DNA of 64,000 nt from Thermoanaerobaculia bacterium (GCA_038229875.1 JBBROA010000003.1:1465-65464); one strand, 5' to 3'; shown: positions 2,512 to 21,568, counted from the first letter of the stretch. Notes: generated by a model not told the origin, from the sequence alone. Made by a program: numbers and translations.

Positions 2512-2515
2512 CGCA

Positions 2516-5253: not shown

Positions 5254-5263
5254 AACTTCCGCG

Positions 5264-5333
5264 GCCTAACGGCTTAGCGCTCAGCCGCGGCGGCGGCGGA
5301 GCCGACGACGTCGGCTGCAGCGCGATGTTAGGC
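5264..5333 (-). repeat. attC site 10 (70 bp)
   Basis: GCCTAACGGCTTAGCGCTCAGCCG...GTTAGGC. Confidence 0.9.
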
Positions 5334-5765: not shown

Positions 5766-5779
5766 AGGCTCCTTCCGGT

Positions 5780-5855
5780 GCCTAACGGCCTGCGCGTCAG
5801 CGGCGAGTGAGGAGGCGAAGCCGACGAACGAGTCCGCTGCACGCGCGTGTTAGGC
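5780..5855 (-). repeat. attC site 11 (76 bp, divergent centre)
   Basis: GCCTAACGGCCTGCGCGTCAGCGG...CCGCTGCACGCGCGTGTTAGGC. Confidence 0.8.
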
Positions 5856-5898
5856 CACGGCGCAACGTGGTCCGTGAGCGAGCAGGGCTTCCGGTCCG

Positions 5899-6198
5899 TC
5901 ATTCGCCTTCTACCACTGTTGCTACCCCGGTTGTCGTATTCACACGGACCAGCCAGTGATAGCCGGGTCGCGCGAACTTCTTCGTGCCCTGAATAAGAAA
6001 CTCCCAGTGAGCGGGGCTACCCGCTGCTTGCTTTACCGAGTACGTCTTCACGGTTTGCTTCGTGTACTTCAGAAATGCCTCCTCGGCAATTCGTCGGGCA
6101 TCTCTGGCGTCGGGAGGCCAGTGCGCCGCCGATGGTGTAGGTGTTGGCTGCGAGGCGATCGGCGTCGCGACCACTGGGGCGATCTGGAACAGCCCCAA
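5899..6198 (-). CDS. cassette ORF, small exported protein; start unresolved
   Basis: Track ORF 5899..6300 crosses attC 12; no in-cassette ATG, first alternative is TTG at 6198; hydrophobic IGAVVLLGLFQIAPVVA follows the attC-encoded stretch. Confidence 0.45.
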   Translation of the reverse strand: MGLFQIAPVVATPIASQPTPTPSAAHWPPDARDARRIAEEAFLKYTKQTVKTYSVKQAAGSPAHWEFLIQGTKKFARPGYHWLVRVNTTTGVATVVEGE

Positions 6199-6228
6199 GA
6201 GAACGACCGCACCTATACGACTTCCGTG

Positions 6229-6289
6229 GCCTAACGGCTTGCGGCTCAGCGGCGCCCGCGAGGGCGTCCGCTGCAGCCGCGGGTTAGGC
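6229..6289 (-). repeat. attC site 12 (61 bp, short type)
   Basis: GCCTAACGGCTTGCGGCTCAGCGGCGCCCGCGAGGGCGTCCGCTGCAGCCGCGGGTTAGGC. Confidence 0.85.
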
Positions 6290-6296
6290 GGCTGGC

Positions 6297-7019
6297 TCAC
6301 CGTCGCCCCGCCTTTCGGAAAGCGATCTGGAAGACTTCACTTACAAGCCAAGATCGTAGGTGCGTCCCGGCCAGCCTGTCCTTTTGGCCGAACCTGGTCG
6401 GTGCAAGCGACGCCAAGGCCCGGCCAATGTCGGGCTCATAGGTCTGATAAGTCGTGCCGGACCGGCTTACCTTCCAAGGAATCATGAAGGCCTGTTGAGC
6501 AGAGGACGAGAGACTCACCGTCGTTCCGTCGGCAAGGCCCACCACCGCGGACACGTGAGGGTAGTCATCAGTCCACCAGTGTCCTGGGGCGTAGTACTCA
6601 TCCAGAAGTCGGGAAATCAGTTCCACATCAGCTCGGGCGGCCTCGAATTCTTCCCGAACTCGCGGTGCCGCGTAAGTTGAATATAGCGCGTGGTGTACAC
6701 CACTATTCGCGATCCGAATATCCTGCGGCGTAGCCGTCTGAAGCCAGGAAACGAGGTCCGCGAGATCGCTTCCATGAAATTGCGGCTTCGGCGCTGTCTT
6801 CAAGCCTCGTAGCAATAGAGCCACAGCCTCCGAGCACTCCGCATGGTCACAGGCGACCGTGTATTCAGCGGGGTCGGGCGGAGTTGGGGTCGGACACGAG
6901 TCGTCTCCGCCCGCCGGCCGCGTTTCGATCACGCTAAGACCTTGCCAAGATGACGCGACGTGGATCCTGATCTGCTGGCTAGCAGATTGCGAGATCGCGT
7001 TGGCGGTTGACAAGGCCAT
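6297..7019 (-). CDS. cassette ORF, hypothetical exported protein (240 aa from ATG 7019)
   Basis: Track ORF 6297..7331 trimmed to first in-cassette ATG; the frame is open across attC 13 to ATG 7145. Confidence 0.55.
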   Translation of the reverse strand: MALSTANAISQSASQQIRIHVASSWQGLSVIETRPAGGDDSCPTPTPPDPAEYTVACDHAECSEAVALLLRGLKTAPKPQFHGSDLADLVSWLQTATPQDIRIANSGVHHALYSTYAAPRVREEFEAARADVELISRLLDEYYAPGHWWTDDYPHVSAVVGLADGTTVSLSSSAQQAFMIPWKVSRSGTTYQTYEPDIGRALASLAPTRFGQKDRLAGTHLRSWLVSEVFQIAFRKAGRR

Positions 7020-7061
7020 TGCAAGGCCCGTTGCGAGAGCAATCCCATGACTCGTGTGGCC

Positions 7062-7131
7062 GCCTAACGTCCCAAAGCTCAGCCGCGGCGACGGCGAAGC
7101 CGGCGACGTCGGCTGCAGCGCGATGTTAGGC
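7062..7131 (-). repeat. attC site 13 (70 bp)
   Basis: Consensus type. Confidence 0.9.
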
Positions 7132-7137
7132 CGAGCG

Positions 7138-7584
7138 CTACCCATGTGGCTCCCACATCCGAGCGATCGCCTTCGCCAACATCGGCGGCAAGCAATCACG
7201 GGCCGCGCAGAATTGTGGCTGGGTTGAGACCCATTCCACGCGAGCCCCATTTCGAAACCTGAGAAGGGCTCGAGCTGCCCGAGGTGGTTGTGCGACGCAG
7301 TCCACGCAGATGACGCAGGGCTCCGGTTCATATCGGATCACCACGTCCGCCTGGTCCGACGTGGGTGCCAGACTAGCTCCAGGCGACCATTTCAGAAGCC
7401 ACGGTCTGATCTGCTCAGCCGTATATGCGGCTGCCCAGCATTTCCCGTCCTCCACGAAGAACGATCGCGTTCGCGAGGAAGGAGGAAGAGGATGGGTTAG
7501 AGGAATTGGTCGATACGGTATGCAGCCGCTAAGGGCCGCCACGGCGGCCAGCCCGAAGACAAAGCAGTAAGGCGCCTTCGCTCG
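7138..7584 (-). CDS. cassette ORF, putative lipoprotein; start unresolved
   Basis: Track ORF 7138..7668 crosses attC 14; lipobox-like FGLAAVAALSGC just after the attC; no ATG inside the cassette. Confidence 0.5.
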   Translation of the reverse strand, partial: RAKAPYCFVFGLAAVAALSGCIPYRPIPLTHPLPPSSRTRSFFVEDGKCWAAAYTAEQIRPWLLKWSPGASLAPTSDQADVVIRYEPEPCVICVDCVAQPPRAARALLRFRNGARVEWVSTQPQFCAARDCLPPMLAKAIARMWEPHG

Positions 7585-7645
7585 GCCTAACGGATTTCGC
7601 TTCAGCGGCGAGCGCAAGCGAGTCCGCTGCAAGCGTGTGTTAGAC
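7585..7645 (-). repeat. attC site 14 (61 bp, short type, R' = GTTAGAC)
   Basis: GCCTAACGGATTTCGCTTCAGCGG...CCGCTGCAAGCGTGTGTTAGAC; stem changes are compensatory relative to the other attCs. Confidence 0.8.
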
Positions 7646-7657
7646 GGCGCCCGCCGT

Positions 7658-8062
7658 TCACGGGCCATACGTTGCCTGCGGCCAAACGAAGAGGAGAAAT
7701 AAGTAGCACGAGGCCGTCACCACCAAAGGGCCACGGAGGCTACGATGCGTCACCGTGGAGAGGGCCAGAGTAACTCCCGCGACGAGCAGAAAGAGGGCGG
7801 CATTTAAGGCGACCTCAACGGCGAGTATCGCGCCGAACGCCAGGACGGTCGTGCCTGTTAGCGCGACGAGGATCCCGCGTGAGTTCCAGAACAGGGCTTG
7901 CGCAAGGCGAGTGCCGAATCCGTGCCCGCCGAACAGGAAAGACTCTTCCGCTGGATGCAAGAGGAAAGTGCTGAGCGACACCAGAAGCGTTACAACTAGA
8001 AAGAAGCGGGCGGTTCTCGTGCCTGCTCGGCGAGCGCCGGAGGCAATTGTTTCAATGGTCAC
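7658..8062 (-). CDS. cassette ORF, multi-TM membrane protein (134 aa)
   Basis: ORF track; four hydrophobic helices. Confidence 0.55.
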   Translation of the reverse strand: MTIETIASGARRAGTRTARFFLVVTLLVSLSTFLLHPAEESFLFGGHGFGTRLAQALFWNSRGILVALTGTTVLAFGAILAVEVALNAALFLLVAGVTLALSTVTHRSLRGPLVVTASCYLFLLFVWPQATYGP

Positions 8063-8079
8063 GCCTGCGCCTTAGCGCC

Positions 8080-8149
8080 GCCTAACGTCTCAAAGCTCAG
8101 CGGCTCGCGCAGCGGAGCGGAGCGAGTCCGCTGCAGCGCGATGTTAGGC
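8080..8149 (-). repeat. attC site 15 (70 bp, private centre CTCGCGCAGCGGAGCGGAGCGAG)
   Basis: Same centre as attC 16 and 18, all of which belong to ORF-less cassettes. Confidence 0.9.
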
Positions 8150-8321
8150 GGTGCGCAGATTTGTAGGCCAGGACCGGACTCTCGCCGCCTGGCCACCCGA
8201 AGCGGCTCCTCTCCGACGCGTGGAAACTTGAGCCCTCTTCCGGCGGTATCGGTGATCACGCGGCACCTTCGAACCTTGCGGCCGGCTGGCCGAGCCTTGA
8301 GGCTGAAGATGACTCGCAGCC
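8150..8321 (-). other. ORF-less 172-bp integron cassette, copy B
   Basis: See copy A; indel-free alignment. Confidence 0.75.
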
Positions 8322-8391
8322 GCCTAACGTCCCAAAGCTCAGCGGCTCGCGCAGCGGAGCGGAGCGAGTCCGCTGCAGCGCGATGTTAGGC
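8322..8391 (-). repeat. attC site 16 (70 bp)
   Basis: Same private centre as attC 15 and 18. Confidence 0.9.
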
Positions 8392-8563
8392 GGTGCGCAG
8401 ATTTGCAGGACCGGACCAGACTCTCGCCGCTTGGCGGCCCGAAGTGGCTCCTCTCCGACGCGTGGAGACTTGAGCCCTCTCCCGCCGTCATCCGTGATCA
8501 TGCCGCACCTTTGACCCTTGCGGCCGGCTCCCCAAACCTTGATGCTGAAGACAAGTCGCAGCC
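8392..8563 (-). other. ORF-less 172-bp integron cassette, copy C
   Basis: See copy A. Confidence 0.75.
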
Positions 8564-8633
8564 GCCTAACGTCTCAAAGCTCAGCCGCGGCGGCGGCGAA
8601 GCCGACGACGTCGGCTGCAGCGCGATGTTAGGC
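8564..8633 (-). repeat. attC site 17 (70 bp)
   Basis: Consensus type. Confidence 0.9.
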
Positions 8634-8640
8634 CGCACGC

Positions 8641-8916
8641 CTACCATGCGAGCGCATGTCCCCGGATGAATCGCCAGAAGTAAACGGGCTCCGCAAAAGG
8701 ACCTAACAGAAAAATCGTCCAGAACCAGATCCGTTCCCTACCAGCTGGCACGCGGGAATTCTGCCGGATGTCCCAAAGATAAAAGAGCCATAAGCCAAAC
8801 TCGACAAGGACAAAACCAAACAGCGCCGCGCCGGGGATATCGACATCTGTGACGGCGAGAAGGAACGCGATCGGGATCTGCCCGAATGTCGCCAAGCCGA
8901 TCAGTGCCTTGCCCAT
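8641..8916 (-). CDS. cassette ORF, PLDc_N-like small membrane protein (91 aa)
   Basis: LFYLWDIRQNSRVPAGRERIWFWTIFLLGPFAEPVYFW resembles the PLD-nuclease N-terminal membrane domain. Confidence 0.55.
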   Translation of the reverse strand: MGKALIGLATFGQIPIAFLLAVTDVDIPGAALFGFVLVEFGLWLFYLWDIRQNSRVPAGRERIWFWTIFLLGPFAEPVYFWRFIRGHALAW

Positions 8917-8947
8917 ATCCCTATCGCCGACTGCGTCGCTTCGTGCG

Positions 8948-9017
8948 GCCTAACGTCCCAAAGCTCAGCGGCTCGCGCAGCGGAGCGGAGCGAGTCCGCT
9001 GCAGCGCGATGTTAGGC
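8948..9017 (-). repeat. attC site 18 (70 bp)
   Basis: Identical to attC 16. Confidence 0.9.
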
Positions 9018-9189
9018 GGTGCGCAGATTGGAAGCCTAGGACCGGACTCTCGCCGCACAGCCCCCCGAAGCGGCTCCTCTGCGACGCGTGGAGACTTGAG
9101 GCCTCTCCCGGCGGTATCCGTGATCACGCCTCACCCTTTAACCTTGCGGTCGGACGGCCAAGCCTCGACGCTGAAGGCAACTCGCAGCC
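9018..9189 (-). other. ORF-less 172-bp integron cassette, copy D
   Basis: See copy A. Confidence 0.75.
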
Positions 9190-9259
9190 GCCTAACGTCC
9201 CAAAGCTCAGCCGCGGCGGCGGCGAAGCCGACGACGTCGGCTGCAGCGCGATGTTAGGC
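9190..9259 (-). repeat. attC site 19 (70 bp)
   Basis: Consensus type. Confidence 0.9.
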
Positions 9260-9511
9260 GGCCGAGGCAAGCAGTGCTCCTAGCGCCATCCGGCCGAAGT
9301 TGGCCAACTGCGCCTCCGAAAACTCGAAGCGTCTTGCCTGGGCCGCATCCACATCGGCGAACGTGATGAAGACGTCGTGTTCCCATTTCCGTGCGGCCGA
9401 GTCCGCCAAGGTGACCATGTCGAGGGTGAGTTCGAGGGTTCCACCCATCGGTCTGACCGAAATGCACAGCCCTCGCCCACCCCGAATGCCGTCGTCCTTC
9501 GCACGTGCCAT
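9254..9511 (-). CDS. first cassette ORF, hypothetical protein (85 aa)
   Basis: Track ORF 9254..9556 trimmed to ATG 9511 behind AGGAGG (GTTAGGCGTCCAAAGATAGGAGGTCGCATG); stop in attC R'' TAA. Confidence 0.5.
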   Translation of the reverse strand: MARAKDDGIRGGRGLCISVRPMGGTLELTLDMVTLADSAARKWEHDVFITFADVDAAQARRFEFSEAQLANFGRMALGALLASAA

Positions 9512-9531
9512 GCGACCTCCTATCTTTGGAC

Positions 9532-9747
9532 GCCTAACATGTATTAGACCGCCCAATGCTGGCCGCCAACGCTGCGCAACGCGCTCCCCAATTCTTCCTC
9601 GCCGCTTCCTTCATTCGCACGAGATCTCTCTTCCTCTCACCATGTTGAGACTCCGGCAACCCTCTCGCGGTTCCCCCGTTAGCGAACCAAAACTGTCGCC
9701 TAACGTCCCTGCGAGCAGCAGCGGATTGGGAAATGGTGCTCATGGCC
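9532..9747 (-). other. intI-to-array junction containing candidate attI
   Basis: Minus strand has GTTAGGC cores at 9538-9532 and 9704-9698. GTTGCGC (9580-9574) and GTTGGCG (9570-9564) half-site-like repeats lie upstream of the 9538 core. Confidence 0.4.
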
Positions 9748-10755
9748 TCACAGGTTGTCCGCCGGGCTGCGGATGCCTCGGCCGCCGGTCCGATTCAAGA
9801 CGTGTGTGTAGATCATCGTTGTTTTGACGTCGGCGTGGCCCAGGAGCTCCTGGATGGTCCGGATATCGTAACCGTCTTCGAGCAGGTGGGTCGCGAAAGA
9901 GTGTCGCAGGGTGTGGCAGTGGACCGGTTTCTTGATGCCCGCGTCCCGTACGGCCTGGGCGAACGCCCTCTGCACGACGCTTTCATGCAAGTGATGGCGT
10001 CGCTCGACTTGTGTGCGCGGGTCGCGGCTTCGCTTTTCCGCCGGGAAGAGCCATTGCCATCCCCAATCGCGATCCGCGCCCGGGTACTTTCTCGCGAGCG
10101 CATCCGGAAGGTAGACGTCCCCGAAACCCTCCTCCAGGTCTTTCTCGTGCAGGCGCTTGACCGCCGACATCCAGGAGGCGAGCGGCGTCATCAGGGACTC
10201 GGGTAACGGCACCGGTCGGTCCCGGCCTCCTTTCGCTTCGCGCACCGTGATCCGGTGGAAGGCGTACTCCACGTCTTTGATCCGGAGCCGCAGGCACTCG
10301 AGCAGGCGCATTCCGCTTCCGTAGAGCAGCAGACAGATGACCCGCGGGTTTCCGGACAGGCGACCCACGATCGACCGGACCTCGGCGCGGGTGAGACCGG
10401 CCGGCTTCGTCCGGGGGCGTTGGGCGCGCACGACGTGGTCGAGAGGGCCGACCGGAGTCTCGAGCACGTGCCGGTATACGAACAGGATTGCGGCGAGCGC
10501 CTGGTTCTGCGTCGACGCGCTCACGCCGTGGGTCACCGCGAGGTCGAAGAGGAACGCGTTGATCTCCTGCTCCCCCATTTCCTTCGGATGCCGCTTGCCG
10601 TGGAAAAGGATATAGCGGCGGATCCAGCCGACGTAGGCCTCCTCGGTTCGGAGGCTGTAGTGGCGCGCCCGGATCGCGATCCGGACACGGTCGAGGAAGC
10701 GCGGCGGGCGCTGCGCGGAGTCGGGAGTCGGCCACGGCCCGGAGATCGTCGTCAT
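9748..10755 (-). CDS. intI: integron integrase (tyrosine recombinase)
   Basis: 335 aa; [36 protein letters not shown], IntI-specific insert [48 protein letters not shown] (R-H-R-Y). Confidence 0.95.
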
Positions 10756-11263: not shown

Positions 11264-12973
11264 TCAGTCATAGAGACCGTCCGCGAACCAGCTCTCGCCC
11301 CGCCGGTCGCGGAAGATTCGATACAGGCCGCCGTCGGACAGCTCGACGTCCCAGTAGTCGCGCTCCGCCGGAGAGTCCGACCACCAGCCTTCCTCGAGAG
11401 ACCACGGGCCGGCGGCGACGCGCACTGTCCCCTGGATGTCGAGAGAGGAGCCGGGCGCGGACTTGATCGACAGGAGACGCGGCGACCGCGTCTGAGAGAT
11501 CGGGACGACGACGGCGGCGGCGGCGGCGCGCCGGCCCTCTCCGTTCCCCGCCGCGGAAACCGCTGCAGCCTGGGCGGACGCGCGTCGGTTGCGGCTCTCG
11601 CCGGCGGCAACGGTGAGAGGCAACGGGGTCCGGACGGCGGCGGCGGGAGGAGTCGGCGTCTCGGCGGTTAAGACCTCGAGCGCGATCGGCGGCCGCAGCA
11701 CCCGCACCGCGAGAAGTCCGCGGCCGCGCCTGGGTGTGCGCGCGATCTCGGGCGGCGCCGGCGGCGCGTAGGAGGCGAGCGCGTACCGCTCCGGGCGGTG
11801 GCCGTCCACCGTGCGCGGAGATCCGACGCGGTCGGCGCCGAGCATCGAGGCGAGGCGCGCGATCGTCGTCGCGAGGCGGTCCGGCGACAGCGCGGCCGGT
11901 CCGAAGAGCGAGAGCTGCGCGCGCCGCGGCTTGTCCGGATGCGCGGAGAACGAGAACCCTGCGACCGCGGCGCCGGGCGGCCTCGCTTCGAGCTCGAGCC
12001 GCAGGAGCGTCAAGAGCGTCTTGACATCGCGGGTCGGCGCCGGCAGCGAGATCCCGCGCGCATCCACGCCCTCGGGATCGAGCTTCAGCGTCACCTCGAG
12101 CCGCGTGCACGCCAGCGCCTGCGATTCCAGCCGCGCGACGAGACGCTCGAGCGCTGCGTGCCCGACGAAGAGGAACGGCTCGAGAGTCACGAGCGGCCAC
12201 TCGAGGTCCATCCCCTCCGACAGCACGAGCGCGGGGACGCGCGGCTCGAGCGGACGCGGGTCGAACCCGCGCGCGGTCGCGTGGAGCTCGCGTCCGAGCT
12301 CGCCCAGGCGGCTGGCGACTTCTCCCTCCGGCAGGCGCGCGAGCTCGCCGATCGAGTCGATTCCCCACTGCGTCAGTCGTGCGCCGATCTCCATCGCGGG
12401 AGCGAGCCGGTCGAGCGGCAGGGGGGCCAGGAACTTCGCCTCGTCTCCCTCCGGCACGACCTTCGGCGAATCGGGAAGCGACGCCGCCACGCGGGCCGCG
12501 AGCTTCGAGCCCGCGATCCCGACGCGCGCCGGAAGACCGGAGGCTTCGACCGCGGCGATCAGGCGCTGGCCGAGGAGCGACTCGGCGCGTTCCGCGGACA
12601 CGCCGTCCTTCGGAGAGAGACCGGGCAGACCGTCGAGGTCGAGGTACACCGAGCCCTCCCCCGCGTCCTCGACGCGAGGCGAGAACGAGTCGGCGATCTC
12701 GAGAAGCGCCTCCTGAGCCGCGCGCTCGCTTTCCGCGTCGCGGCCGCGCGCGACCAGCTTCGGGACGATCGCGCGGGACTGCGGGAGCGTCATCCCCTGG
12801 CGGATCCCCGCGCGGCGCGCCGGACGGGACGCCGCGATCACGCGCGCCGCGTTCCCGTTGCCCTCGAAGATCGCGACCGGCTCCCCCTTCAGCTCCGGCT
12901 CGCTGCGCAGTCTCGCCGCGAGAGAGAAGAGAGGGACATCGAGGCAGGCGATGCGGGCGCGGGGACGCGTCAT
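11264..12973 (-). CDS. imuB: ImuB, Y-family polymerase-like mutagenesis protein
   Basis: Track ORF 11264..13909 trimmed to MTRPRARIACLDVPLFSLAARLR...; typical ImuB N-terminus and YWDVEL...YRIF C-terminus; ATGA overlap with the imuA stop. Confidence 0.85.
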   Translation of the reverse strand: MTRPRARIACLDVPLFSLAARLRSEPELKGEPVAIFEGNGNAARVIAASRPARRAGIRQGMTLPQSRAIVPKLVARGRDAESERAAQEALLEIADSFSPRVEDAGEGSVYLDLDGLPGLSPKDGVSAERAESLLGQRLIAAVEASGLPARVGIAGSKLAARVAASLPDSPKVVPEGDEAKFLAPLPLDRLAPAMEIGARLTQWGIDSIGELARLPEGEVASRLGELGRELHATARGFDPRPLEPRVPALVLSEGMDLEWPLVTLEPFLFVGHAALERLVARLESQALACTRLEVTLKLDPEGVDARGISLPAPTRDVKTLLTLLRLELEARPPGAAVAGFSFSAHPDKPRRAQLSLFGPAALSPDRLATTIARLASMLGADRVGSPRTVDGHRPERYALASYAPPAPPEIARTPRRGRGLLAVRVLRPPIALEVLTAETPTPPAAAVRTPLPLTVAAGESRNRRASAQAAAVSAAGNGEGRRAAAAAVVVPISQTRSPRLLSIKSAPGSSLDIQGTVRVAAGPWSLEEGWWSDSPAERDYWDVELSDGGLYRIFRDRRGESWFADGLYD

Positions 12974-13899
12974 GCCGAGTCGCGGATCGGGACGAGGAGG
13001 GCGGAGACGGCGCGCTCCGGGCTCCCTGCCGCCCTCTCCCCCGGCGCGCGGGGAGAGACGGGTGGCACGGGAGTGAGCGAAGACGCGGGCTCCGGGGCAG
13101 ACGTAAGGGAAAGCGAAAGCGAAAGCGCGCCGCGCGAATCCGGGGGCGGCGCCTGCCCGACGCGAAGCGAGAGCGGGACAGAAGTGCCGGGGGTCTCGCG
13201 CCCGAACTTGTCGAGCGAGACACGGGACGAGATCCCCTCGAGAAGACGCGGCGATTTTCCCGAGCCGAGCCACGCCGGGCGCGCGACGTTGGTTCCGAGA
13301 ACCGCTTCCGCCGCGATCCCCGTCATCCGCCACGGCGTCACGACGAGCAGGCACGCGCCCTGGGCCTGGGCGGCGCGGGCGAGGCGCACCCAGGCGGCAT
13401 CGGGCAGGTACCGCGCGCCACGAGGCGAGAGGCCGAGGTCGGCGACGACGAGCGGGAATCCCGCCGAGAGAAGCATCTCCGCGCAAGCGAGCGCGGACTT
13501 GAGCCGCGTCGGGCGGACCCACAGGAGCCGCGCGAGGTCGATCCCGGCGCGCCCGGCCGCTTCCGGATCCAGGTGATCGCCGAGGTCGACGAGCGCGGCC
13601 GGCTCTCCCGCGGAAGTTGCGGAGGCAAGCGCCGCGAGCGCGAGCGAGTGGCGACCGGAGGAGCGGCGGCCGACGAGCTCGACGAGCTTCCCTTTCGGAA
13701 GGCCTCCTAAGAGCCGCTCGATCGGGGCGTGCGCGTTGGCGGCGGACCCGGCAACCGGAGCGGCCGAACGCGCGGGAGGGGCGAGCTCCGAGGCGCGGGT
13801 CAGCCGGGCCGAGGTGCCGCTCAGGAGCGAGCCGCGCTTTGCCGTCGTCAGCGCGCCTGCCCGGAGGAGCTGCTCGAGGGCGATTCGCGAGGCGCTCAT
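12970..13899 (-). CDS. imuA: ImuA, RecA-fold SOS mutagenesis protein
   Basis: Track ORF 12970..14181 trimmed to MSASRIALEQLL...; GGLPKGKLVELVGRRSSGRHSLALAALA degenerate Walker-A typical of ImuA. Confidence 0.8.
   Translation of the reverse strand: MSASRIALEQLLRAGALTTAKRGSLLSGTSARLTRASELAPPARSAAPVAGSAANAHAPIERLLGGLPKGKLVELVGRRSSGRHSLALAALASATSAGEPAALVDLGDHLDPEAAGRAGIDLARLLWVRPTRLKSALACAEMLLSAGFPLVVADLGLSPRGARYLPDAAWVRLARAAQAQGACLLVVTPWRMTGIAAEAVLGTNVARPAWLGSGKSPRLLEGISSRVSLDKFGRETPGTSVPLSLRVGQAPPPDSRGALSLSLSLTSAPEPASSLTPVPPVSPRAPGERAAGSPERAVSALLVPIRDSA
13034..13057. repeat. GC-rich palindromic REP-like element inside imuA 3' tail
   Basis: CTCTCCCCCGGCGCGCGGGGAGAG. Confidence 0.5.
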
Positions 13900-13936
13900 G
13901 CCGCCACACCTTTCTCCGGCGGAGAGCCGGAAAAGG

Positions 13937-13965
13937 AAGATAGGCGTAAAAAAGGCGTAAATCAA
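13937..13965 (-). promoter_or_regulatory. candidate imuA promoter with direct repeat in spacer
   Basis: Minus strand TTGATT-N17-TATCTT about 40 nt upstream of the imuA ATG; spacer holds TTTACGCC twice, 11 bp apart. Confidence 0.3.
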
Positions 13966-14161
13966 GATGACAAGCCGTGTCCGATCCCAGGTGAGGACAG
14001 GCGAGGAAGTGTCAGTTAAATCATTGGTATTCCATGAGCTTACGGCCACGCGCTCGCGCCAGCCGCCGTCCCGGGATCGAGGCGGCGTAAACGCCTGTCC
14101 GGCTGTAAGATCCCGGCGCAGAAGCGTGCGGCCGGGCGGCGCGCGCGGCGGGGCGGCATCG

Positions 14162-15196
14162 ATGGCGCACGACGTTTTCATCAGTTACGCGACGAGCGAC
14201 AAGCCCGTCGCGGACGCCGTCTGCGCGGGTCTCGAGGCCCGCGGCCTCCGCTGCTGGATCGCTCCGCGCGACATTCTGCCCGGCCTCGACTGGGGCGCCG
14301 CCCTCATCGACGCGATCACCGAGTGCAAGGCGATGGTGCTCGTGTTCTCCGCCAGCGCGAACTCCTCGAAGCAGATCAAGCGCGAGGTCGAGCGCGCGGT
14401 CGCGAAGGGCGTCACGATCATCCCGCTGCGGATCGAGGACGTGCCGCTCGGGAAAACCCTCGAGTACTTCATCAGCACGCCGCACTGGATGGATGCGCTC
14501 TCGCGTCCCCTCGAGCCGCACATCGACCGCCTCGCGCAGACGATCCGCTCCCTTCTCGCACGGCCGAGCCGCTCGACCGGCGGCGTCGCCGTGCCGAATC
14601 CCGCGGAGGCTCCCGCGATCCCGCCGCCGCGGATCCCACCTCCGCCGCCGCCCGCCCGGCCCACTTCGCCGCCCGCAAGACCTTCCGGCGCCGCCGCGAC
14701 CCCGGCCGCTCCCGCGGGGAAACTCCGGCCCGCGCATCTGCTCGCCGGAGCCGCGGTCCTCCTCGGGCTGCTCGTCGTGTTCGGGCTGTTCCATTCGTCC
14801 GCGCCGCAGATCGTCTCGCTCCAGTTCCCGTCGCAGATCTTCGCGAACAACCAGCCCGCGCAGGGGGTGATCCTCTTCAAGACCAGCAAGGCGGATCTCG
14901 CCGCCGCCCGTTTCGACGTCGTCCAGGCCGCGAACTTTCCGCCGATCTCTTTTCCGTTGCGCTCCGTCGGCCAGAAGGAAGGGTCCGTCGGGTTCTTCCT
15001 TCAGACCTCGGTGCCTCAGCACGTGGTCCTGCAGGCGGTGCTGATCGATCGCGCCGGCCGCGAGAGCCGTCCCGTGAAATTCGCGTTCGACGTCGCACCG
15101 GCGCCCGTGAACGCACCGGCGGCCCGGCGCAAGTACGGCCCGCGCGGGATCGAGATCCAGGCGCCGAACGGATTTCGTTTTCGACTGCCCAGATAG
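14162..15196 (+). CDS. TIR-domain protein with Pro-rich linker, one TM helix and C-terminal extracytoplasmic domain
   Basis: Track ORF 13967..15196 trimmed to MAHDVFISYATSDKPVADAV...RCWIAPRDI...MVLVFSASANSSKQIKREVERA; TM LLAGAAVLLGLLVVFGLF. Confidence 0.8.
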   Translation: MAHDVFISYATSDKPVADAVCAGLEARGLRCWIAPRDILPGLDWGAALIDAITECKAMVLVFSASANSSKQIKREVERAVAKGVTIIPLRIEDVPLGKTLEYFISTPHWMDALSRPLEPHIDRLAQTIRSLLARPSRSTGGVAVPNPAEAPAIPPPRIPPPPPPARPTSPPARPSGAAATPAAPAGKLRPAHLLAGAAVLLGLLVVFGLFHSSAPQIVSLQFPSQIFANNQPAQGVILFKTSKADLAAARFDVVQAANFPPISFPLRSVGQKEGSVGFFLQTSVPQHVVLQAVLIDRAGRESRPVKFAFDVAPAPVNAPAARRKYGPRGIEIQAPNGFRFRLPR

Positions 15197-15222
15197 CGCG
15201 CACGACTCGAGAGGAGGCTCGC

Positions 15223-15507
15223 CTGGATTATCGGCCCGCTCCCCGGGACACCTCGTCGGTCTCGCTTCCCGCGGGGATCTCGGACTTGACCGAGCTTCTC
15301 GCGAAGAACACGCATGAGAACTGGGCCCGGCAGCGCATGAGCGACGGATGGAAGTACGGGCCGCGCCGCGACGACGCGAAGAAGGAGCACCCGAGCCTCG
15401 TGCCGTACGAGAAGCTGTCGGACTCCGAGAAGGAATACGACCGGCGCACCGCGATCGAGACGATCAAGACGATCCTCGCGCTCGGGTATCGGATCGAGAA
15501 GCCGTGA
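15223..15507 (+). CDS. RyR (ryanodine-receptor repeat) domain-only small protein; start uncertain (CTG 15223 after GAGGAGG, or TTG 15286)
   Basis: C-terminal part of track ORF 14323..15507: LAKNTHENWARQRMSDGWKYGPRRDDAKKEHPSLVPYEKLSDSEKEYDRRTAIETIKTILALGY. Confidence 0.65.
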   Translation: MDYRPAPRDTSSVSLPAGISDLTELLAKNTHENWARQRMSDGWKYGPRRDDAKKEHPSLVPYEKLSDSEKEYDRRTAIETIKTILALGYRIEKP

Positions 15508-16604
15508 GCCGTCCGCAGGACGAACTGCACGACGAGGAGACGGACCTCGCCGACCCCGGGCCGCTCGGGGAGTTCCTGCGGCTGTGCCGCGACCACCTGA
15601 CGAAACCGTTCCGCCACGCGGACCGCGAGGCGATCGAAAGCCAGCGATGGCACCGGCGCGTCACGGGGAGCGCGGCCGTGCTGGGCGGCTTCTCGCTGGT
15701 TCTCGCGGCCGTCAACATCGCGATGCCGTTGCTGTTCGGTCCGCCGGGAATCCTTGCGGAAGCGGTGCTCGCCGTTCTCGCGACGATCCTCGTGTTCACC
15801 GGAATTCTTCGAGGCTGGCACGGCGACTGGCTCCTGCGGCGCTTCCAGGCCGAGCAGCTGCGCCTTGCGAAGTTTCGATTTCTCGTCAACCCGGACTTCT
15901 GGTGCGAGGGCGCGGCCGCGGCGCCGGGACCCCGCGATCGCTTTCTCCGCGAGATCGAGCGCATCGAGGCCCTGCAGGAGGAGGATCTCGCGTCGGTCGC
16001 CGCAGACGAGAACGTTCCGACGCTTCCGTCCGGGGCCGCGTGCGGCAGCATCCCGGACGCGCTGAGACTCGAGATCCTCGCGTATTACCGCCGCCAGCGG
16101 CTGGCCGCGCAGATCGCGTATTTTTCGGCGACCGGGCGGCGCAAGCGGCGGTGGTATCAGAGCCCCGCGCTTCTGCCGGGCGTCTTCTTCGTCAGCGTCC
16201 TCTGCGTCGCGCTGCACGCGTGGGCCCACCGCGTCTCGCACTCGCACCGCGGGGAATCGGCGACGGTGACGGCGGCGACGGCTAAGACGAGCGAGAGCGC
16301 GGCGCCCGCAGAATCGCGCTTCCCGCAGGGCGTCGAGGGACTCGGCGCGCTGGCGCTCGCGCTTTCTCTCGGGCTGCCGGGCGGGTGGGCAGCGGTCCGG
16401 ACCTGGCGCACCGCAAACGAATTCGGCCGGAACCGGACGCGGTCCCTGGCGCGGTTTCATTCGCTGTCGAAAGTCGCGGACCGGCTTCGGGCGCAAGCGC
16501 CGGCGGAGGATGTGTTTTCGGACCTGGGGCTCTGCGAGCACATCCTCGCGGCGGACCAGGGGGAGTGGCTGCGTCTGATGCTGGAGGCGGAGTGGTATGG
16601 GTAG
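15504..16604 (+). CDS. tandem SLATT-like 4-TM membrane protein
   Basis: GTG 15504 overlaps the TGA of the RyR gene (GTGA); two repeats of helix + 2 TM + W..R..AE.LR helix (YYRRQRLAAQIAYF; ANEFGRNRTRSLARFHSL). Confidence 0.65.
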   Translation: MSRPQDELHDEETDLADPGPLGEFLRLCRDHLTKPFRHADREAIESQRWHRRVTGSAAVLGGFSLVLAAVNIAMPLLFGPPGILAEAVLAVLATILVFTGILRGWHGDWLLRRFQAEQLRLAKFRFLVNPDFWCEGAAAAPGPRDRFLREIERIEALQEEDLASVAADENVPTLPSGAACGSIPDALRLEILAYYRRQRLAAQIAYFSATGRRKRRWYQSPALLPGVFFVSVLCVALHAWAHRVSHSHRGESATVTAATAKTSESAAPAESRFPQGVEGLGALALALSLGLPGGWAAVRTWRTANEFGRNRTRSLARFHSLSKVADRLRAQAPAEDVFSDLGLCEHILAADQGEWLRLMLEAEWYG

Positions 16605-16711: not shown

Positions 16712-16743
16712 TTGACTCAAACGAACGTTCGTGCTTTTATAGT
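16712..16743 (+). promoter_or_regulatory. candidate TetR promoter and operator
   Basis: TTGACT-N17-TTTTAT with perfect 12-bp palindrome ACGAACGTTCGT (16721-16732) in the spacer; ATG at 16748 implies a very short or absent leader. Confidence 0.4.
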
Positions 16744-16747
16744 TGCC

Positions 16748-17350
16748 ATGAGGAAAGGCGATCGCACTCGCGAAACCATCCTGGACGTCGCGGTTCGGCT
16801 GGCGAGCGAAGTCGGCCTTTCCGGGCTCTCGATCGGCCGGCTGGCCACGGAACTCTCCATGTCCAAAAGCGGGCTTTTCGCGCACTTTCACTCCAAGGAA
16901 GCGCTACAGGCGCAGACGCTCGGGCACGCTTCCGAGCTCTTCATCGAGATCGTCGTTCGGCCGGCGCTCGCGGCACGGCGCGGCGAGCCGCGGCTTCGCG
17001 CTCTCTTCGACCGCTGGCTCGAGTGGACCCGGACCGCCGAGCTCCCCGGCGGCTGCCTGTTCGTGACCGCGGCGGTCGAGTTCGACGACCGGCCCGGTCC
17101 CGTGCGCGACGGCCTCGTCGCTCTTCAGAAGGAGTGGCTCGAAGTGATCGCCCGGGTGGCCCGCACCGGGATCGCGGAAGGTCACTTCGCGGAGGGACTC
17201 GACGCCGAGCAGCTCGCGCACGATCTCTACGCCGTGATGCTGGGTTATCACCACGCCTCGCGGCTCATTCGCGATCCGCGCGCGGCGGATCGCGCTCGTT
17301 CGGGATTCGAGACGCTCCTGGCCGCGGCGCGCGTCCGGCGGACCGCATGA
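16748..17350 (+). CDS. TetR/AcrR family transcriptional regulator
   Basis: TRETILDVAVRLASEVGLSGLSIGRLATELSMSKSGLFAHFHSKEALQ helix-turn-helix. Confidence 0.85.
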   Translation: MRKGDRTRETILDVAVRLASEVGLSGLSIGRLATELSMSKSGLFAHFHSKEALQAQTLGHASELFIEIVVRPALAARRGEPRLRALFDRWLEWTRTAELPGGCLFVTAAVEFDDRPGPVRDGLVALQKEWLEVIARVARTGIAEGHFAEGLDAEQLAHDLYAVMLGYHHASRLIRDPRAADRARSGFETLLAAARVRRTA

Positions 17351-18237
17351 CGGCTTCTCGCGTCCGCCGCGATCGCGCCGCCCCGCCCGCGGGGCGCCGG
17401 CTGAAACTGCTGCGCCTCGGGATGAGGACGCTCGGGGTCCTCGCGCCCCCTCTCGCCGCGCGGGCCGCCGAGGTTCTCTTTCGGCGTCCTCCCGGCCACG
17501 CGGCCTGGGACGGAGAGCACACGATTCTCGATCGAGGCCGGCCAGCCTCCTTCCGTGTCCGAGGCCGCGCCGTCGCCGCATGGACGTGGGGCGCCGGACC
17601 CGCGGTCCTGCTCGTCCACGGCTGGGGCAGCCGGGGTGCGCGGCTCGGATCCTTCGTTTCTCCCCTGATGGAAGCCGGATTCTCGGTCGTCACGTTCGAC
17701 GCGCCGGGGCACGGCGCGACGGGAGGGCGGCTATCCTCCCTGCCCGAATTCCTGTTCTCGATCGAGGCGGCTCACGCTGCCTACGGCCCGTTTGCCGGGA
17801 TCATCGGCCACTCGCTCGGCGGCGCCGCATCGACACTCGCTCTCGCGCGCGGAGTGGAGGCCGACAGAGTGGTGTTCCTTGCACCCGCCGCGGACCCGGC
17901 GGGCTTCGCGCGGAAATTCGCCGAGATCGCCGGCGTCGCTCCACGGGTGCGCGAGCGGATGGAAGCCCGACTCGTGCGGGAGTTCGGCATGACCTGGGCG
18001 GAGTTCGACGTGCTCGCCGCGGCGCGCCGGGTGACTTCTCCCCTCCTAGTTTTTCACGACGAGGACGACCGGGACGTGCCTTTCGGAGACGGAGCCGCGA
18101 TCGCTGCCGCCTGGAAAAACGGCGCGATCGTCCCGACCCGGGGACTCGGCCACCGCCGAATCGTCCACGACGCGTCGGTGGTCCGAGGAGCGGTCGAGTT
18201 CCTGACGTCCCGAGCGGCCGCCGCCCGCAGCGGCTGA
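17347..18237 (+). CDS. alpha/beta hydrolase
   Basis: ATGA overlap with the TetR stop; LLVHGWGSRG, GHSLGG nucleophile elbow, HRRIVHD. Confidence 0.8.
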   Translation: MTASRVRRDRAAPPAGRRLKLLRLGMRTLGVLAPPLAARAAEVLFRRPPGHAAWDGEHTILDRGRPASFRVRGRAVAAWTWGAGPAVLLVHGWGSRGARLGSFVSPLMEAGFSVVTFDAPGHGATGGRLSSLPEFLFSIEAAHAAYGPFAGIIGHSLGGAASTLALARGVEADRVVFLAPAADPAGFARKFAEIAGVAPRVRERMEARLVREFGMTWAEFDVLAAARRVTSPLLVFHDEDDRDVPFGDGAAIAAAWKNGAIVPTRGLGHRRIVHDASVVRGAVEFLTSRAAAARSG

Positions 18238-19544: not shown

Positions 19545-20771
19545 ATGACCAGGAAGAAAAAGCGGTTTATGTGGGCCGGCGCCATCGCCGTTCTGCTCGC
19601 GGCGGCAGGCATCATCGCCGCCCGCGGGCGCGATAAGGCCGATCCCAAGGCTCAGAGCAGCCCGTTCCGGCTCGGGAAGGTCCAGGCGGAGGACCTCCAG
19701 GTGAGCGTCCGAGAGGTCGGCGTCGTCGATCCCGAGACGAAGGTGGACGTCAAATCGGCGGTGTCCGGACGCGTCATCTCCCTTCGCGTGCGCGACGGCG
19801 CGGTCGTCAAGGCCGGCGACATGCTCGCCGAGATCGAGCCCGACGTGAACCAGGCGCAATCGCTCTCCGATACGCAGGCCGGCCTGACCTCCGCGGAGCT
19901 CAAGCTGAAAGACGCCGACCGCCAGTTCGCGAGCCAGAAAGCGCTTTACGAGCAGGGTCTGCTCGGGAAGGACGGCTTCAAGGAAGTCTCCAACCTTCAT
20001 GAGCAGGCCGTCGAGACGCTGCGCGCCGCCCGGATGCGGTACCAGATCGTCGAAGACCGCGGGATTCCGATCTCCGGCAACGCCGCGTCGCAGAAGGCGC
20101 GCGTGACCGCGCCGATGAGCGGCGTGGTCATCAAGAAAGGCGTCGAGCTCGGCGAGACCGTGACGTCCGGCGTTTCCTCCTTCAACGCGGGCACGGTCCT
20201 CTTCACCGTGGCGGACCTGAAGTCCCTGCTCATCCGGGTGAACCTGAACGAGGTGGACATCGCCAAGGTGCACGTCGGACAGCCCGTCCGGATCACCCTC
20301 GACGCCTATCCGCAGAAAGTCTTCACGGGGAAGGTGCGGTTCGTCGCGCCCGCCGCCAAGCTCGTCGAGAAGATCAAGGTCTTCGAGGTCGAGGTCGCGC
20401 TCGACGAGCTCGGCGATTCCTTCAAAACCGGGATGAGCGCGAACGTCGAGATCCTCGGCGAGAAGCGCGACAAGGCCGTTTCGATCCCGCTCGAAGCGCT
20501 TCAGAAGAGAGACGGCAAGACGGTCGTCTATCGCCTGAAGCCCGCGCTGAAACCGCAGCAGCTCGCCGCCGCCAAAGATGCCCTGAGCGGCCGCAACAAG
20601 TTCATCTGGCTTTCGGATCACTGGAAAGAGTATTTCGATGCGGTCCCCGTCTCCGCCGGGATCGCGACACTGGAGCGCGTCGAAGTGCTGGCGGGCGTCA
20701 AGGCCGGCCAGCAGGTCGCGCTCGAAGACCCCTCGAAGAAGAAGGTGGAGAAGGACGACGATAACGACTGA
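19545..20771 (+). CDS. efflux transporter periplasmic adaptor (HlyD/MacA-like)
   Basis: Signal anchor, VSGRVISLRVRDGAVVKAGDMLAEIEPD lipoyl-like motif, coiled-coil region. Confidence 0.85.
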   Translation: MTRKKKRFMWAGAIAVLLAAAGIIAARGRDKADPKAQSSPFRLGKVQAEDLQVSVREVGVVDPETKVDVKSAVSGRVISLRVRDGAVVKAGDMLAEIEPDVNQAQSLSDTQAGLTSAELKLKDADRQFASQKALYEQGLLGKDGFKEVSNLHEQAVETLRAARMRYQIVEDRGIPISGNAASQKARVTAPMSGVVIKKGVELGETVTSGVSSFNAGTVLFTVADLKSLLIRVNLNEVDIAKVHVGQPVRITLDAYPQKVFTGKVRFVAPAAKLVEKIKVFEVEVALDELGDSFKTGMSANVEILGEKRDKAVSIPLEALQKRDGKTVVYRLKPALKPQQLAAAKDALSGRNKFIWLSDHWKEYFDAVPVSAGIATLERVEVLAGVKAGQQVALEDPSKKKVEKDDDND

Positions 20772-20881
20772 TTCGGCTGGCAGCTGGCCGCTGTCACTGT
20801 CAGTTCTCAGCTCTGAGTCCGCCCGCCGAGCCGGTCCGCGCCGGCGCGTCAGGTAAGTCCCGGAAGCGCGCGAGGAAACCC

Positions 20882-21568
20882 ATGCAGCCCATCATCCAGA
20901 CATCGAACCTGACCAAGACCTACGGCACCAATGGCGCCGCGGTCCATGCGCTCCGCGGCATCGACCTCGAGGTCGGCCGCGGCGAGTTCGTCGCGCTGAT
21001 CGGTCCCTCCGGGTCGGGCAAGTCGACGCTCATGGCGATTCTCGGCTGCCTGGACCTGCCGACCTCCGGAACGTACGCGCTCGACGGACGGCGCGTCGAG
21101 GGTCTCTCAGGAATCGAGCTCGCGCAGCTGCGCAACGAGAAGATCGGGTTCGTCTTCCAGCAGTACAACCTGCTGCCGAAGGCGTCCGTGCGCCGCAACG
21201 TCGAGCTGCCGATGCTCTACGCGGGTATTCCGCGCAAGGAGCGCCGGGAGCGGGCGATGCAGCTGCTCGAGAAGGTCGGGATCGGTGAGAAGTCCGAGCG
21301 GCTGCCTGCGGTGCTCTCCGGCGGACAGCGCCAGCGCGTTGCCGTTGCGCGGGCGCTCGCGAACCACCCCGCGCTTCTTCTCGCCGACGAGCCCACGGGC
21401 GCGCTCGATTCTAAGACGGGACACGAAGTCCTCGAGCTCTTTTCCGAGCTGCACGGGCAGGGGAACACGATCATCATCGTCACCCACGACCTCGCCATCG
21501 CGAAGATGGCCAGCCGGCAGGTCGAGATCCACGACGGCCTGATCGCCACGGCCGAGCAGGTCGCGTAG
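20882..21568 (+). CDS. ABC transporter ATP-binding protein (MacB/LolD type)
   Basis: GPSGSGKST Walker A, LSGGQRQRVAVARAL signature, LLLADEPTGALD Walker B. Confidence 0.95.
   Translation: MQPIIQTSNLTKTYGTNGAAVHALRGIDLEVGRGEFVALIGPSGSGKSTLMAILGCLDLPTSGTYALDGRRVEGLSGIELAQLRNEKIGFVFQQYNLLPKASVRRNVELPMLYAGIPRKERRERAMQLLEKVGIGEKSERLPAVLSGGQRQRVAVARALANHPALLLADEPTGALDSKTGHEVLELFSELHGQGNTIIIVTHDLAIAKMASRQVEIHDGLIATAEQVA

Follow-up and report, generated by a model that had tools for sequence, protein, structure and literature searches.

A stand-alone ryanodine-receptor repeat protein encoded between TIR and SLATT genes in an operon resembling Thoeris systems

The stretch analyzed here (the window) comprises 64,000 nucleotides (nt) of one strand from a Thermoanaerobaculia bacterium (GCA_038229875.1 JBBROA010000003.1:1465-65464), and positions are counted from its first letter. 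At 14162-16604 lies an operon of three genes, encoding a membrane-anchored TIR protein (gene 1), a protein that consists of a single ryanodine-receptor repeat (RyR) domain (gene 2), and a SLATT-like putative membrane effector (gene 3). All three are on the + strand, as an earlier note made from the sequence alone had described, and the 26-nt gap between genes 1 and 2 (15197-15222) and the 4-nt GTGA in which the stop codon of gene 2 overlaps the GTG start of gene 3 (15504-15507) are both present. Around the locus, the GC content is about 66-72%. The features of the operon are as follows.

14162-15196, + strand: gene 1, membrane-anchored TIR protein of 344 amino acids (aa), with a TIR_2 profile match
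14162-14566, + strand: TIR domain of gene 1, by Pfam TIR_2
14822-15193, + strand: predicted C-terminal extracytoplasmic domain of gene 1, a candidate sensor, fast-evolving and with homologous modules in secreted or surface-type architectures
15209-15217, + strand: ribosome-binding site GAGAGGAGG of gene 2, read from the sequence
15223-15507, + strand: gene 2, stand-alone RyR-domain protein of 94 aa with a CTG start, matching Pfam RyR over its full length
15504-16604, + strand: gene 3, SLATT-like putative membrane effector of 366 aa with four predicted transmembrane (TM) segments and a GTG start, by NCBIfam SLATT_1
13900-14161, no strand assigned: divergent intergenic region between imuA (- strand) and gene 1 (+ strand), presumed to hold the operon promoter

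Gene 2 matches the Pfam RyR model (PF02026) from the first to the last profile position (1-91 of 91) with a score of 123 bits (E = 6e-36; cut-off, 27.4), and it has no match in PADLOC. The earlier note had called it an RyR-only protein of 73 to 94 aa. Its 120 listed relatives are nearly all 93-98 aa long (most are 94 aa, and a few are 104-118 aa), and in the 19 related loci checked, the start codon at the common position is GTG in 16 and TTG in 3, with a GGAGG-type ribosome-binding site 5-8 nt ahead of it. The lengths of the relatives and this shared start position with its ribosome-binding site indicate that the 94-aa reading is right; the RyR-only assignment is retained and the 73-aa start is not. 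In the window, the codon at this position is CTG, 5 nt after GAGAGGAGG. Either this CTG (15223-15225) is a poor start codon, in which case translation of the coupled SLATT gene would suffer too, or it is an assembly variant.

The putative ligand residues of gene 2 (H31, W34, R49, H56, and D73) are spaced as in RyDEP and RyR Tad, two phage RyR-domain proteins reported in preprints of May-June 2026 to defeat Thoeris (PMC13232231; 10.64898/2026.06.04.730250). Phage proteins of this type bind 2'cADPR, 3'cADPR, and canonical cyclic ADP-ribose (cADPR) at nM to uM affinity or hydrolyze them (PMC13232231; 10.64898/2026.06.04.730250). RyR Tad binds 3'cADPR at 43 nM and both 2'cADPR and canonical cADPR below 1 uM, and its ligand residues are H129/W132, K147/H154, and K170/D171 (10.64898/2026.06.04.730250). 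Homologues in the RyDEP paper have nM affinity for the same ligands, and the catalytic dyad of RyDEP, H75/D117 (PMC13232231), has its equivalent in H31/D73 of gene 2. The criterion was His-x-x-Trp with Lys/Arg at +18, His at +25, and Asp at +42; all 120 clusters related to gene 2 and 25 of 29 RyR-SLATT fusions have the pattern H-W-R-H-x-D. Given the shared PF02026 domain and the same ligand-contacting residues, gene 2 would be expected to form a homodimer and to bind cADPR isomers. Until now, RyR domains have been known only in animal calcium channels and in phage proteins directed against immunity.

Unlike these phage-encoded inhibitors, gene 2 is encoded by the host: it is chromosomal, lies between imuA and a TetR gene, and is syntenic in at least nine species genomes. 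Phage RyR homologues are 28-48% identical to gene 2 over part of its length, with one unannotated fecal bacteriophage contig at 59%, and the bacterial RyR clade linked to TIR and SLATT genes keeps 57-98% identity across phyla. That gene 2 is itself a phage anti-Thoeris protein was rejected on the basis of its chromosomal, syntenic operon and the 28-48% identity of most phage homologues; unlike those antagonists, it is probably a receptor. Gene 2 also matches the B. thetaiotaomicron protein 3nrt and all four repeats of human RyR2 (26-76 bits), and in the alignment with repeat 1 (75.6 bits), about half of the positions are identical. It shares with the Repeat12 (R12) module of animal ryanodine receptors both sequence homology and the conserved pocket residues, as well as, putatively, the plan of a nucleotide-binding module attached to a membrane conductance. 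Unlike the free, single 94-aa repeat encoded by gene 2, animal R12 is a tandem pair inside a Ca2+ channel of about 5000 aa, and direct cADPR binding to it is not established.

The three genes are conserved as neighbors in other genomes. A gene 2 scan of one genome per species gave 80 loci, which were sorted by local profile searches; neighbor calls in high-GC loci used stop-to-stop segments and profiles from the window's own proteins, and the TIR numbers are minimum values. Bacterial genomes have few TIR genes, so the presence of a TIR_2 gene within 8 kb in 48 of the 80 loci with a close gene 2 relative is far above any background. Separate gene-3-type SLATT genes occur at 25 of these loci (21 with a TIR_2 gene), fusions of RyR with TPR-S and cyclase domains at 31 (20 with a TIR_2 gene), K+ channel-TrkA_N proteins with two RyR repeats (K+ channel-TrkA_N-RyRx2) at 6 (2 with a TIR_2 gene, and 2 also counted as SLATT loci), an RyR-SLATT fusion at 1 (L059, with a TIR_2 gene), and other RyR contexts at 19 (5 with a TIR_2 gene). 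Among the loci with a SLATT gene, the order is TIR-RyR-SLATT in 10, RyR-SLATT-TIR in 9, and RyR-SLATT only in 2. The trio is kept in the order of the window in at least 10 species genomes of Thermoanaerobaculia/Acidobacteriota (carriers are the window, L001-L011, L014, and L021) and as RyR-SLATT-TIR in at least 9 more (L012, L013, L015, L016, L019, L020, and L022-L024). An orthologue of gene 1 is present in 13 related loci, and three distant members of the gene 3 family (37-44% identity) lie in the same TIR-RyR-SLATT operon.

Viewed from the effector, RyR is the steadier partner. Scanning metagenomes with the alignment of gene 3 yielded 80 loci, 70 of them evaluable, and RyR accompanies the gene-3-type SLATT in 59 of the 70, as a stand-alone gene immediately upstream (44), as a fusion (4), or elsewhere in the locus (11); the other 11 have none. 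In the 27 well-flanked SLATT loci, RyR is present in 23 and TIR in 19, indicating that SLATT is more constantly paired with RyR than with TIR, and loci with RyR and SLATT but no TIR outnumber those with TIR and SLATT but no RyR by 5 to 1. Searches with eight reference TIR domains found no ThsB-type TIRs hidden in the loci scored as lacking TIR. The 4-nt overlap between RyR and SLATT genes is also kept in the loci of group B, and this overlap suggests cotranslation.

RyR and SLATT also occur as one protein. In Prosthecobacter fluviatilis (L059), a 510-aa protein has RyR at residues 6-95 (121.7 bits) and then a gene-3-type SLATT that ends in the family signature EWCRLQMEAEWFV. A search with this fusion returned at least 27 RyR-SLATT fusion clusters of 461-518 aa, three of them with Pfam SLATT_1 or SLATT_3 matches, and about 18 further clusters of related SLATT-only proteins; neither RyR nor TIR adjoins two of the SLATT-only members. 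L087 is a two-gene operon in which an RyR-SLATT fusion is paired with a TIR gene. The fusion in L088 adjoins AbiEii and HepT/MNT toxin-antitoxin genes, and AAA_15 genes are among the neighbors of some fusion loci.

The RyR repeat was observed in several other arrangements. Proteins of about 750-790 aa in Pyrinomonadaceae and cyanobacteria (e.g., L033, L036, L038-L040, L042, L060, and L062) combine an N-terminal RyR with TPR-S, MAP3K_TRAF_bd, and a class III adenylate/guanylate cyclase, and the examined TIR genes beside them encode proteins of the form TIR-TM-(WD40 or other). Such loci look like a relay from TIR through RyR to cyclic nucleotide monophosphates (cNMP). On plasmid NZ_CP128553.1 of Priestia aryabhattai XT37, a cultured strain (L173; 57615-67893), genes for a "Pycsar system effector family protein," two hypothetical proteins, a cyclase, and an RyR protein stand in a row, with a convergent gene for a 743-aa TIR protein nearby; adenylate/guanylate cyclase and RyR are thus separate genes on this plasmid and are fused in cyanobacteria and Pyrinomonadaceae. 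Locus L028 (8408-10216) encodes a K+ channel (TTIGYGD filter, Ion_trans_2) with TrkA_N and two C-terminal RyR repeats, directly after a stand-alone RyR gene and near a gene for a TIR-TM-WD40 protein. The same channel architecture, which from its domain content could be called, in effect, a bacterial "ryanodine-receptor-like" channel, is present in L025, L026, L029, L049, and L057. Type X Thoeris, which pairs TIR with an ion channel and whose signal is unknown, may be worth checking for RyR repeats.

Additional contexts include a TIR gene (299 aa) followed by RyR and a calcineurin-like phosphoesterase (Metallophos) in L071 (7028-9569), a protein of about 920 aa with a bpMoxR-type AAA domain and a C-terminal RyR in L026 (4914-7667), and an RyR gene followed by one for a TIR-TM-Sel1 repeat protein in the Bacteroidia genome of L081 (5999-9986). 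Proteins of 621 aa in L032 (8296-10161) and L029 (11176-13074, - strand) join an N-terminal "GVTGHR..." domain to a gene-3-type SLATT with four TM segments. This N-terminal domain appears SLOG-like by eye and has no Pfam match; the L032 protein is encoded after TIR and a stand-alone RyR gene.

The assignment of gene 3 to the SLATT families rests on its profile matches and on its predicted architecture. Profile searches, proposed in the earlier note as a check, return significant matches for TIR_2 and RyR, and for gene 3 a SLATT_1 match that exceeds the cut-off of NCBIfam (44.1 bits; cut-off, 41) and falls under that of Pfam (19.8 bits; cut-off, 26.3). The 28 members of its family match DUF4231 (16 members), SLATT_3 (7 members), or SLATT_1 (5 members) at an E of 0.01 or less. 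The AlphaFold2 model, built with 28 relatives in the alignment, is all-helical, with a predicted local distance difference test (pLDDT) score of 90.3 and a predicted template modeling (pTM) score of 0.84. Helices 33-73, 75-103, 223-259, and 277-305 are predicted to form four long membrane helices in two hairpins, and the helix at 105-127, which follows the first hairpin and is predicted to be cytoplasmic, carries the invariant motif W109..R113..AE..RL.KF. In the model, this is the architecture of SLATT proteins, a two-TM hairpin and then a conserved cytoplasmic helix.

Two further motifs of gene 3, R299..ANEFGRN..RS and EWLRLM.EAEW, are also invariant. The invariant residues comprise W109, R113, A116-E117, R120-L121, and K123-F124 in a first set; R299, A304-N305-E306, R309-N310, and R313 in a second; and E354-W355-L356-R357-L358-M359 and E361-A362-E363-W364 in a third. 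All lie on the predicted cytoplasmic side, and the variable, indel-rich stretches are outer loops. The earlier reading of gene 3 as two tandem SLATT copies stands only in part: the succession of helix, two TM segments, and helix does occur twice, but homology of the second copy is weak, with the N-terminal half matching SLATT_1 at an E of 4e-8 and the C-terminal half marginally (E = 0.019, 14.9 bits), and a profile-profile comparison of the two halves (hhalign) detects no homology (probability, 0.1%). A fold search of the model against the PDB finds no structural relative, the matches being only long-helix ABC transporters (best E = 0.045; TM-score, <0.23), and PADLOC gives one insignificant match only.

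Gene 3 is both narrowly distributed and divergent. Just 30 clusters in 5.8 billion proteins share sequence words with it, all from metagenomes of Acidobacteriota/Thermoanaerobaculia type, and identity among relatives is 37-44% where the TIR and RyR domains keep 75-84%. No relatives of gene 3 were found in plasmid or phage collections, and carriage by a mobile element was rejected on this ground.

Residues 5-112 of gene 1 match Pfam TIR_2 (PF13676) with 77.6 bits (E = 1.5e-21; cut-off, 28), in agreement with the TIR call made earlier. The TIR domain (aa 1-135) is followed by a Pro-rich linker (136-195), a single TM segment (196-218), and a C-terminal domain of about 125 aa (about 221-344). The only hydrophobic segment is that at about 196-218, with K/R just before it, and the lack of a signal peptide together with this positive-inside N-flank indicates an N-in topology, which would place the TIR domain in the cytoplasm and the C-terminal domain outside. 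The receptor-like layout that the earlier note had proposed is thereby recovered, its outer domain as a prediction. The Glu that the note had placed at the catalytic position within REVERA is E75, the first Glu of "KREVERA"; in a pairwise alignment, E75 in SSKQIKRE falls on the Glu of SEWSKFE, the S-x-W-x-x-x-E motif of the TIR-STING chain 6wt6. The TIR domain of gene 1 is predicted to be a signal-generating NAD+ glycohydrolase/cyclase, with E75 as its candidate catalytic Glu. Pfam ThsB_TIR scores 16.7 bits against gene 1, under its cut-off of 21.2, and PADLOC returns only generic TIR modules, those of SAVED-TIR and Ago-TIR proteins.

The two ends of gene 1 evolve at different rates. Among relatives, the TIR domain is 75-88% identical (75-79% where ImuA/ImuB are only about 60% identical), versus 38-53% for the C-terminal domain. 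The module in this domain, of about 100 aa and beta-rich, has no Pfam model; it is present in 205 representative proteins (83 at an E of 1e-10 or less), in up to six copies per protein, and co-occurs with PKD, BACON, beta-helix/NosD, CARDB, Laminin_G, and WD40 modules, making it a candidate for a new extracytoplasmic Ig-like domain family. The partner TIRs examined (gene 1, group B, L087, L033, L042, L028, and L059) are all membrane-anchored, either by one TM segment with an outward domain (Ig-like, WD40, or other) or by three to four TM segments, suggesting the envelope as the probable site at which the trigger is sensed.

Many bacterial TIR proteins are NADase effectors, and the TIR modules of SAVED-TIR and Ago-TIR proteins are what PADLOC matches in gene 1, which raises the possibility that the TIR is the effector here, depleting NAD+ as do TIR-pAgo and the TIR effectors of antiphage signaling systems based on cyclic oligonucleotides (CBASS), with RyR and SLATT as upstream sensors or unrelated neighbors. 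We consider this very improbable: the operon has no upstream signal generator (CD-NTase, pAgo, or STAND NTPase), SLATT is a recognized effector module, the TIR of gene 1 has a putative sensor domain of its own, and chance neighbors would hardly show a three-way linkage conserved across phyla.

The nearest characterized relative is type VII Thoeris, a two-gene operon of TIR and SLATT (ThsB and ThsH) with anti-phage activity, described in December 2025 (Yirmiya et al., 10.64898/2025.12.03.692087). On infection, the type VII TIRs produce canonical cADPR, and cells that carry the system are poisoned when cADPR is added (10.64898/2025.12.03.692087). TIR-SLATT gene neighborhoods had already been noted by comparative genomics (PMC9503650, PMC7159879). 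As in Thoeris systems generally, a TIR gene and an adjacent putative effector gene share one operon, and as in type VII, this effector would be a membrane protein of the SLATT family; the logic of a TIR-made, ADPR-derived messenger acting on a membrane-disrupting effector would be the same. By this analogy, the operon looks like a Thoeris-like system, closest to type VII. Unlike type VII, it has three genes, the additional one being a stand-alone RyR gene that lies between those for TIR and SLATT and is coupled in translation to the latter; its TIR is TIR_2-type, membrane-anchored, and equipped with a predicted extracytoplasmic domain; and its SLATT belongs to a 366-aa subfamily with four TM segments.

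The plan of a small-molecule sensor joined to a membrane effector is also that of the SLOG, SAVED, and Macro sensor-effector fusions (CBASS and Thoeris types I-II; SLATT effectors in PMC9503650 and PMC7159879), but in this operon, the sensor candidate is an RyR repeat, mostly encoded by a separate gene and outside the sensor domains listed there. Unlike CBASS, the operon encodes no CD-NTase cyclase detectable by Pfam, PADLOC, or NCBIfam searches, as the earlier note had held. PADLOC has no system-specific models that match all components of the operon. The main text and portions of the tables of the type VII paper do not mention an RyR component (10.64898/2025.12.03.692087), and in portions of the Thoeris survey tables, "RyR" occurs only as letters inside protein sequences. 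Literature searches combining RyR with SLATT, Thoeris, or TIR, whose coverage did not extend to the 2015 SLATT paper (Burroughs et al.), returned no description of a host RyR gene in TIR-SLATT operons. The claim that no named system has this composition must thus be narrowed: TIR with SLATT is type VII Thoeris, whereas the literature searched holds no description of the host RyR component, the membrane-anchored TIR_2-type TIR, the four-TM SLATT subfamily, or the wider set of TIR loci linked to RyR.

We favor the reading of the operon as a Thoeris-like TIR second-messenger system in which RyR serves as the sensor subunit of SLATT, and we give this an even chance of being right. Gene 1, oriented as a type II membrane protein, would be clustered by an envelope cue, most likely phage attack or envelope damage, and the clustered TIR, through E75, would convert NAD+ to a messenger of the cyclic ADP-ribose type; if type VII Thoeris is a guide, this is most likely canonical cADPR or one of its isomers. 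The gene 2 product, presumably as a homodimer, would bind this messenger in the pocket formed by H31, W34, R49, H56, and D73, and the ligand-bound dimer would act as a detachable cytoplasmic sensor subunit of gene 3. Gene 3 would then oligomerize or open and permeabilize the inner membrane, leading to growth arrest or death (abortive infection). The circuit from TIR product through RyR to a SLATT pore, offered as speculation in the earlier note, has in this way gained from the phage RyR and type VII data and from the RyR-SLATT linkage, with the proviso that RyR may instead be a buffer or hydrolase.

Several observations argue for an RyR sensor. The link of RyR to the effector is tighter than that to TIR, and RyR stands at the N terminus of SLATT in fusions from many lineages; the same RyR clade is either fused to or split from a cyclase; RyR forms the cytoplasmic tail of the K+ channel-TrkA proteins, mirroring the animal channel; and the overlap of the RyR and SLATT genes points to their cotranslation. 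The principal rival holds that gene 2 is a negative regulator, a host sponge or glycosidase that acts on basal messenger and sets a threshold or resets the system, like the ring nucleases of type III CRISPR, with SLATT sensing the messenger and the phage proteins RyDEP and RyR Tad being captured copies. The sensor is favored over this alternative, which we regard as possible and rather doubtful. Against a buffer stand the 5-to-1 excess of RyR-SLATT over TIR-SLATT loci; the location of RyR N-terminal to SLATT (in at least 27 clusters) or fused to a cyclase (31 genome loci), which is the usual position of a sensor; the limited buffering to be expected of a 1:1 sponge in cis; and the use of RyR as a built-in regulatory module in K+ channel-TrkA-RyRx2 proteins and in animal RyR channels.

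Other points weigh against the sensor reading, and most of them would suit a buffer. All characterized RyR-domain proteins inactivate the signal, sequestering or hydrolyzing cADPR isomers as a sponge or a glycosidase (PMC13232231; 10.64898/2026.06.04.730250), and gene 2 has the H/D catalytic dyad, its H31/D73 being equivalent to H75/D117 of RyDEP. The SLATT effectors of type VII function in two-gene systems without RyR (10.64898/2025.12.03.692087), so SLATT may sense the ligand itself. Some of the effectors found together with stand-alone RyR already contain RyR repeats (L028) or a putative sensor at the N terminus (L032), and others are unrelated (Metallophos, L071), which sits poorly with a dedicated adaptor. 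Between groups A and B, RyR remains 77-80% identical, while SLATT and TIR drop to about 30%; a near-constant RyR with diverging partners gives no sign of coevolving interfaces. When a natural RyR-SLATT fusion was modeled with AlphaFold2, the linker came out at low confidence and the pTM score was 0.73, which provides no support for a fixed docking of RyR on SLATT. The order of a regulator followed by a toxic gene, with a stop/start overlap, resembles that of antitoxin-toxin pairs. Furthermore, gene 2 may be poorly expressed in this strain because of its CTG start, no PADLOC model covers gene 2 or gene 3, and gene 1 is not similar to type VII ThsB: phmmer with three TIR domains of Table S1 found none in the window or the loci at an E of 0.01 or less.

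The inheritance of the operon bears on its function. It lies beside imuA/imuB, in the same position, in at least nine species-level genomes in which ImuB identity falls to about 61%, and a second, paralogous version (RyR-SLATT-TIR) occupies another conserved housekeeping neighborhood; conservation of the TIR and RyR domains exceeds that of the flanking repair genes. The operon is passed on vertically in this lineage and is not integron cassette or island cargo. An accessory hot spot had been proposed in the earlier note, and the integron and imuA/imuB are indeed beside the operon, but they do not explain an operon that is vertically inherited in relatives. That both Thermoanaerobaculia versions are transmitted in housekeeping neighborhoods, not in defense islands, also counts against the abortive-infection scheme.

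It would fit a resident physiological pathway with no anti-phage role, in which an extracytoplasmic cue, such as envelope stress or a ligand from neighbors or the environment, acts through the TIR receptor, a cADPR-type messenger, and RyR on membrane conductance, with dormancy, ion flux, or programmed death within a community as the outcome. This alternative, which we judge unlikely, accords with the lack of matches in plasmid and phage collections, the membrane anchors and outward domains of the examined partner TIRs, the feeding of related RyR-cyclase fusions into ordinary cNMP signaling, and the lack of a matching PADLOC system. It is opposed by the anti-phage activity of the closest characterized systems (type VII Thoeris), the nature of SLATT effectors as cell-killing modules, the toxin-antitoxin and AAA_15 genes beside fusion-type relatives, and the fast evolution of the sensor domain and SLATT, as in an arms race. 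Presence/absence and decay between near-identical loci also speak against it: L170 and L171 (7001-9311) have identical RyR, but one has an intact RyR-SLATT-TIR operon and the other a shortened SLATT (292 aa) and no TIR, which is evidence of recent decay or loss.

Upstream, the intergenic region at 13900-14161 presumably holds the operon promoter. Its first 120 nt or so and its last 60 nt or so are conserved in L004 and L005, and CTGTAAGAT, about 55 nt upstream of the gene 1 ATG, falls within the latter segment. A consensus scan of this region found no sigma-70 site, promoter and terminator scans made no calls, and there is no clear LexA-type palindrome between imuA and gene 1. Control of the operon by the SOS response through the region shared with imuA was dropped, both for want of a LexA-like palindrome and because relatives have other genes between imuA and the operon.

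Directly between the operon and an integron integrase (9751-10755, - strand; TIGR02249, 456 bits) lie imuB (IMS family) and imuA, at 11267-13899 on the - strand. The imuA product is RecA-like, with an ImuA_translesion match under its cut-off, and no dnaE2 follows imuB in the window or in relatives L001-L003. Across 813-9266 there are at least 16 attC-like repeats of about 95 nt (GCCTAAC...GTTAGGC) at intervals of 242-1800 nt, and the region from 813 to 10755 is a large chromosomal integron, whose two largest cassette open reading frames (2519-3577 and 6300-7331) have no Pfam or NCBIfam match. Origin of the operon as an integron cassette was rejected: intI stands between the operon and the attC array, imuB and imuA separate the operon from intI, and the operon is syntenic in relatives that have no integrase nearby. 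Downstream of the operon are genes for a TetR-family regulator (TetR_N and TetR_C_13) and an alpha/beta hydrolase (16730-18237), followed by HlyD-type and ABC transporter genes (19545-21568); in relatives, the equivalent downstream slot holds LysE, MatE, Y1 transposase, and NUDIX genes.

A broader interpretation, held tentatively and at somewhat less than an even chance, is that the RyR repeat is the native bacterial receptor for TIR-made cyclic ADP-ribose messengers, coupling them to SLATT pores, K+ channels, and cyclases, while transmembrane TIRs sense outside cues with a Toll-like topology. The operon would then be related to the ancestor of the animal axis from cADPR to the ryanodine receptor, and the phage proteins RyDEP and RyR Tad would be stolen copies. 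If RyR does receive the TIR signal, it would be a new sensor domain for Thoeris-type immunity, within a layout of three components, namely a TIR receptor in the membrane, a soluble sensor, and a pore; it would explain the origin of the phage anti-Thoeris RyR proteins, and it would offer a simple bacterial model for the old question of whether cADPR acts directly on the ryanodine receptor. If RyR is instead a host hydrolase or sponge of the signal, it would give Thoeris-type systems their first described built-in off-switch. RyR is fused or adjacent to SLATT, cyclase, or K+ channel proteins beside membrane TIR genes in Acidobacteriota, Cyanobacteria, Planctomycetota, Verrucomicrobiota, Armatimonadota, and Bacillota, and the breadth of this pattern suggests a sizeable and as yet unnamed branch of RyR-linked TIR signaling.

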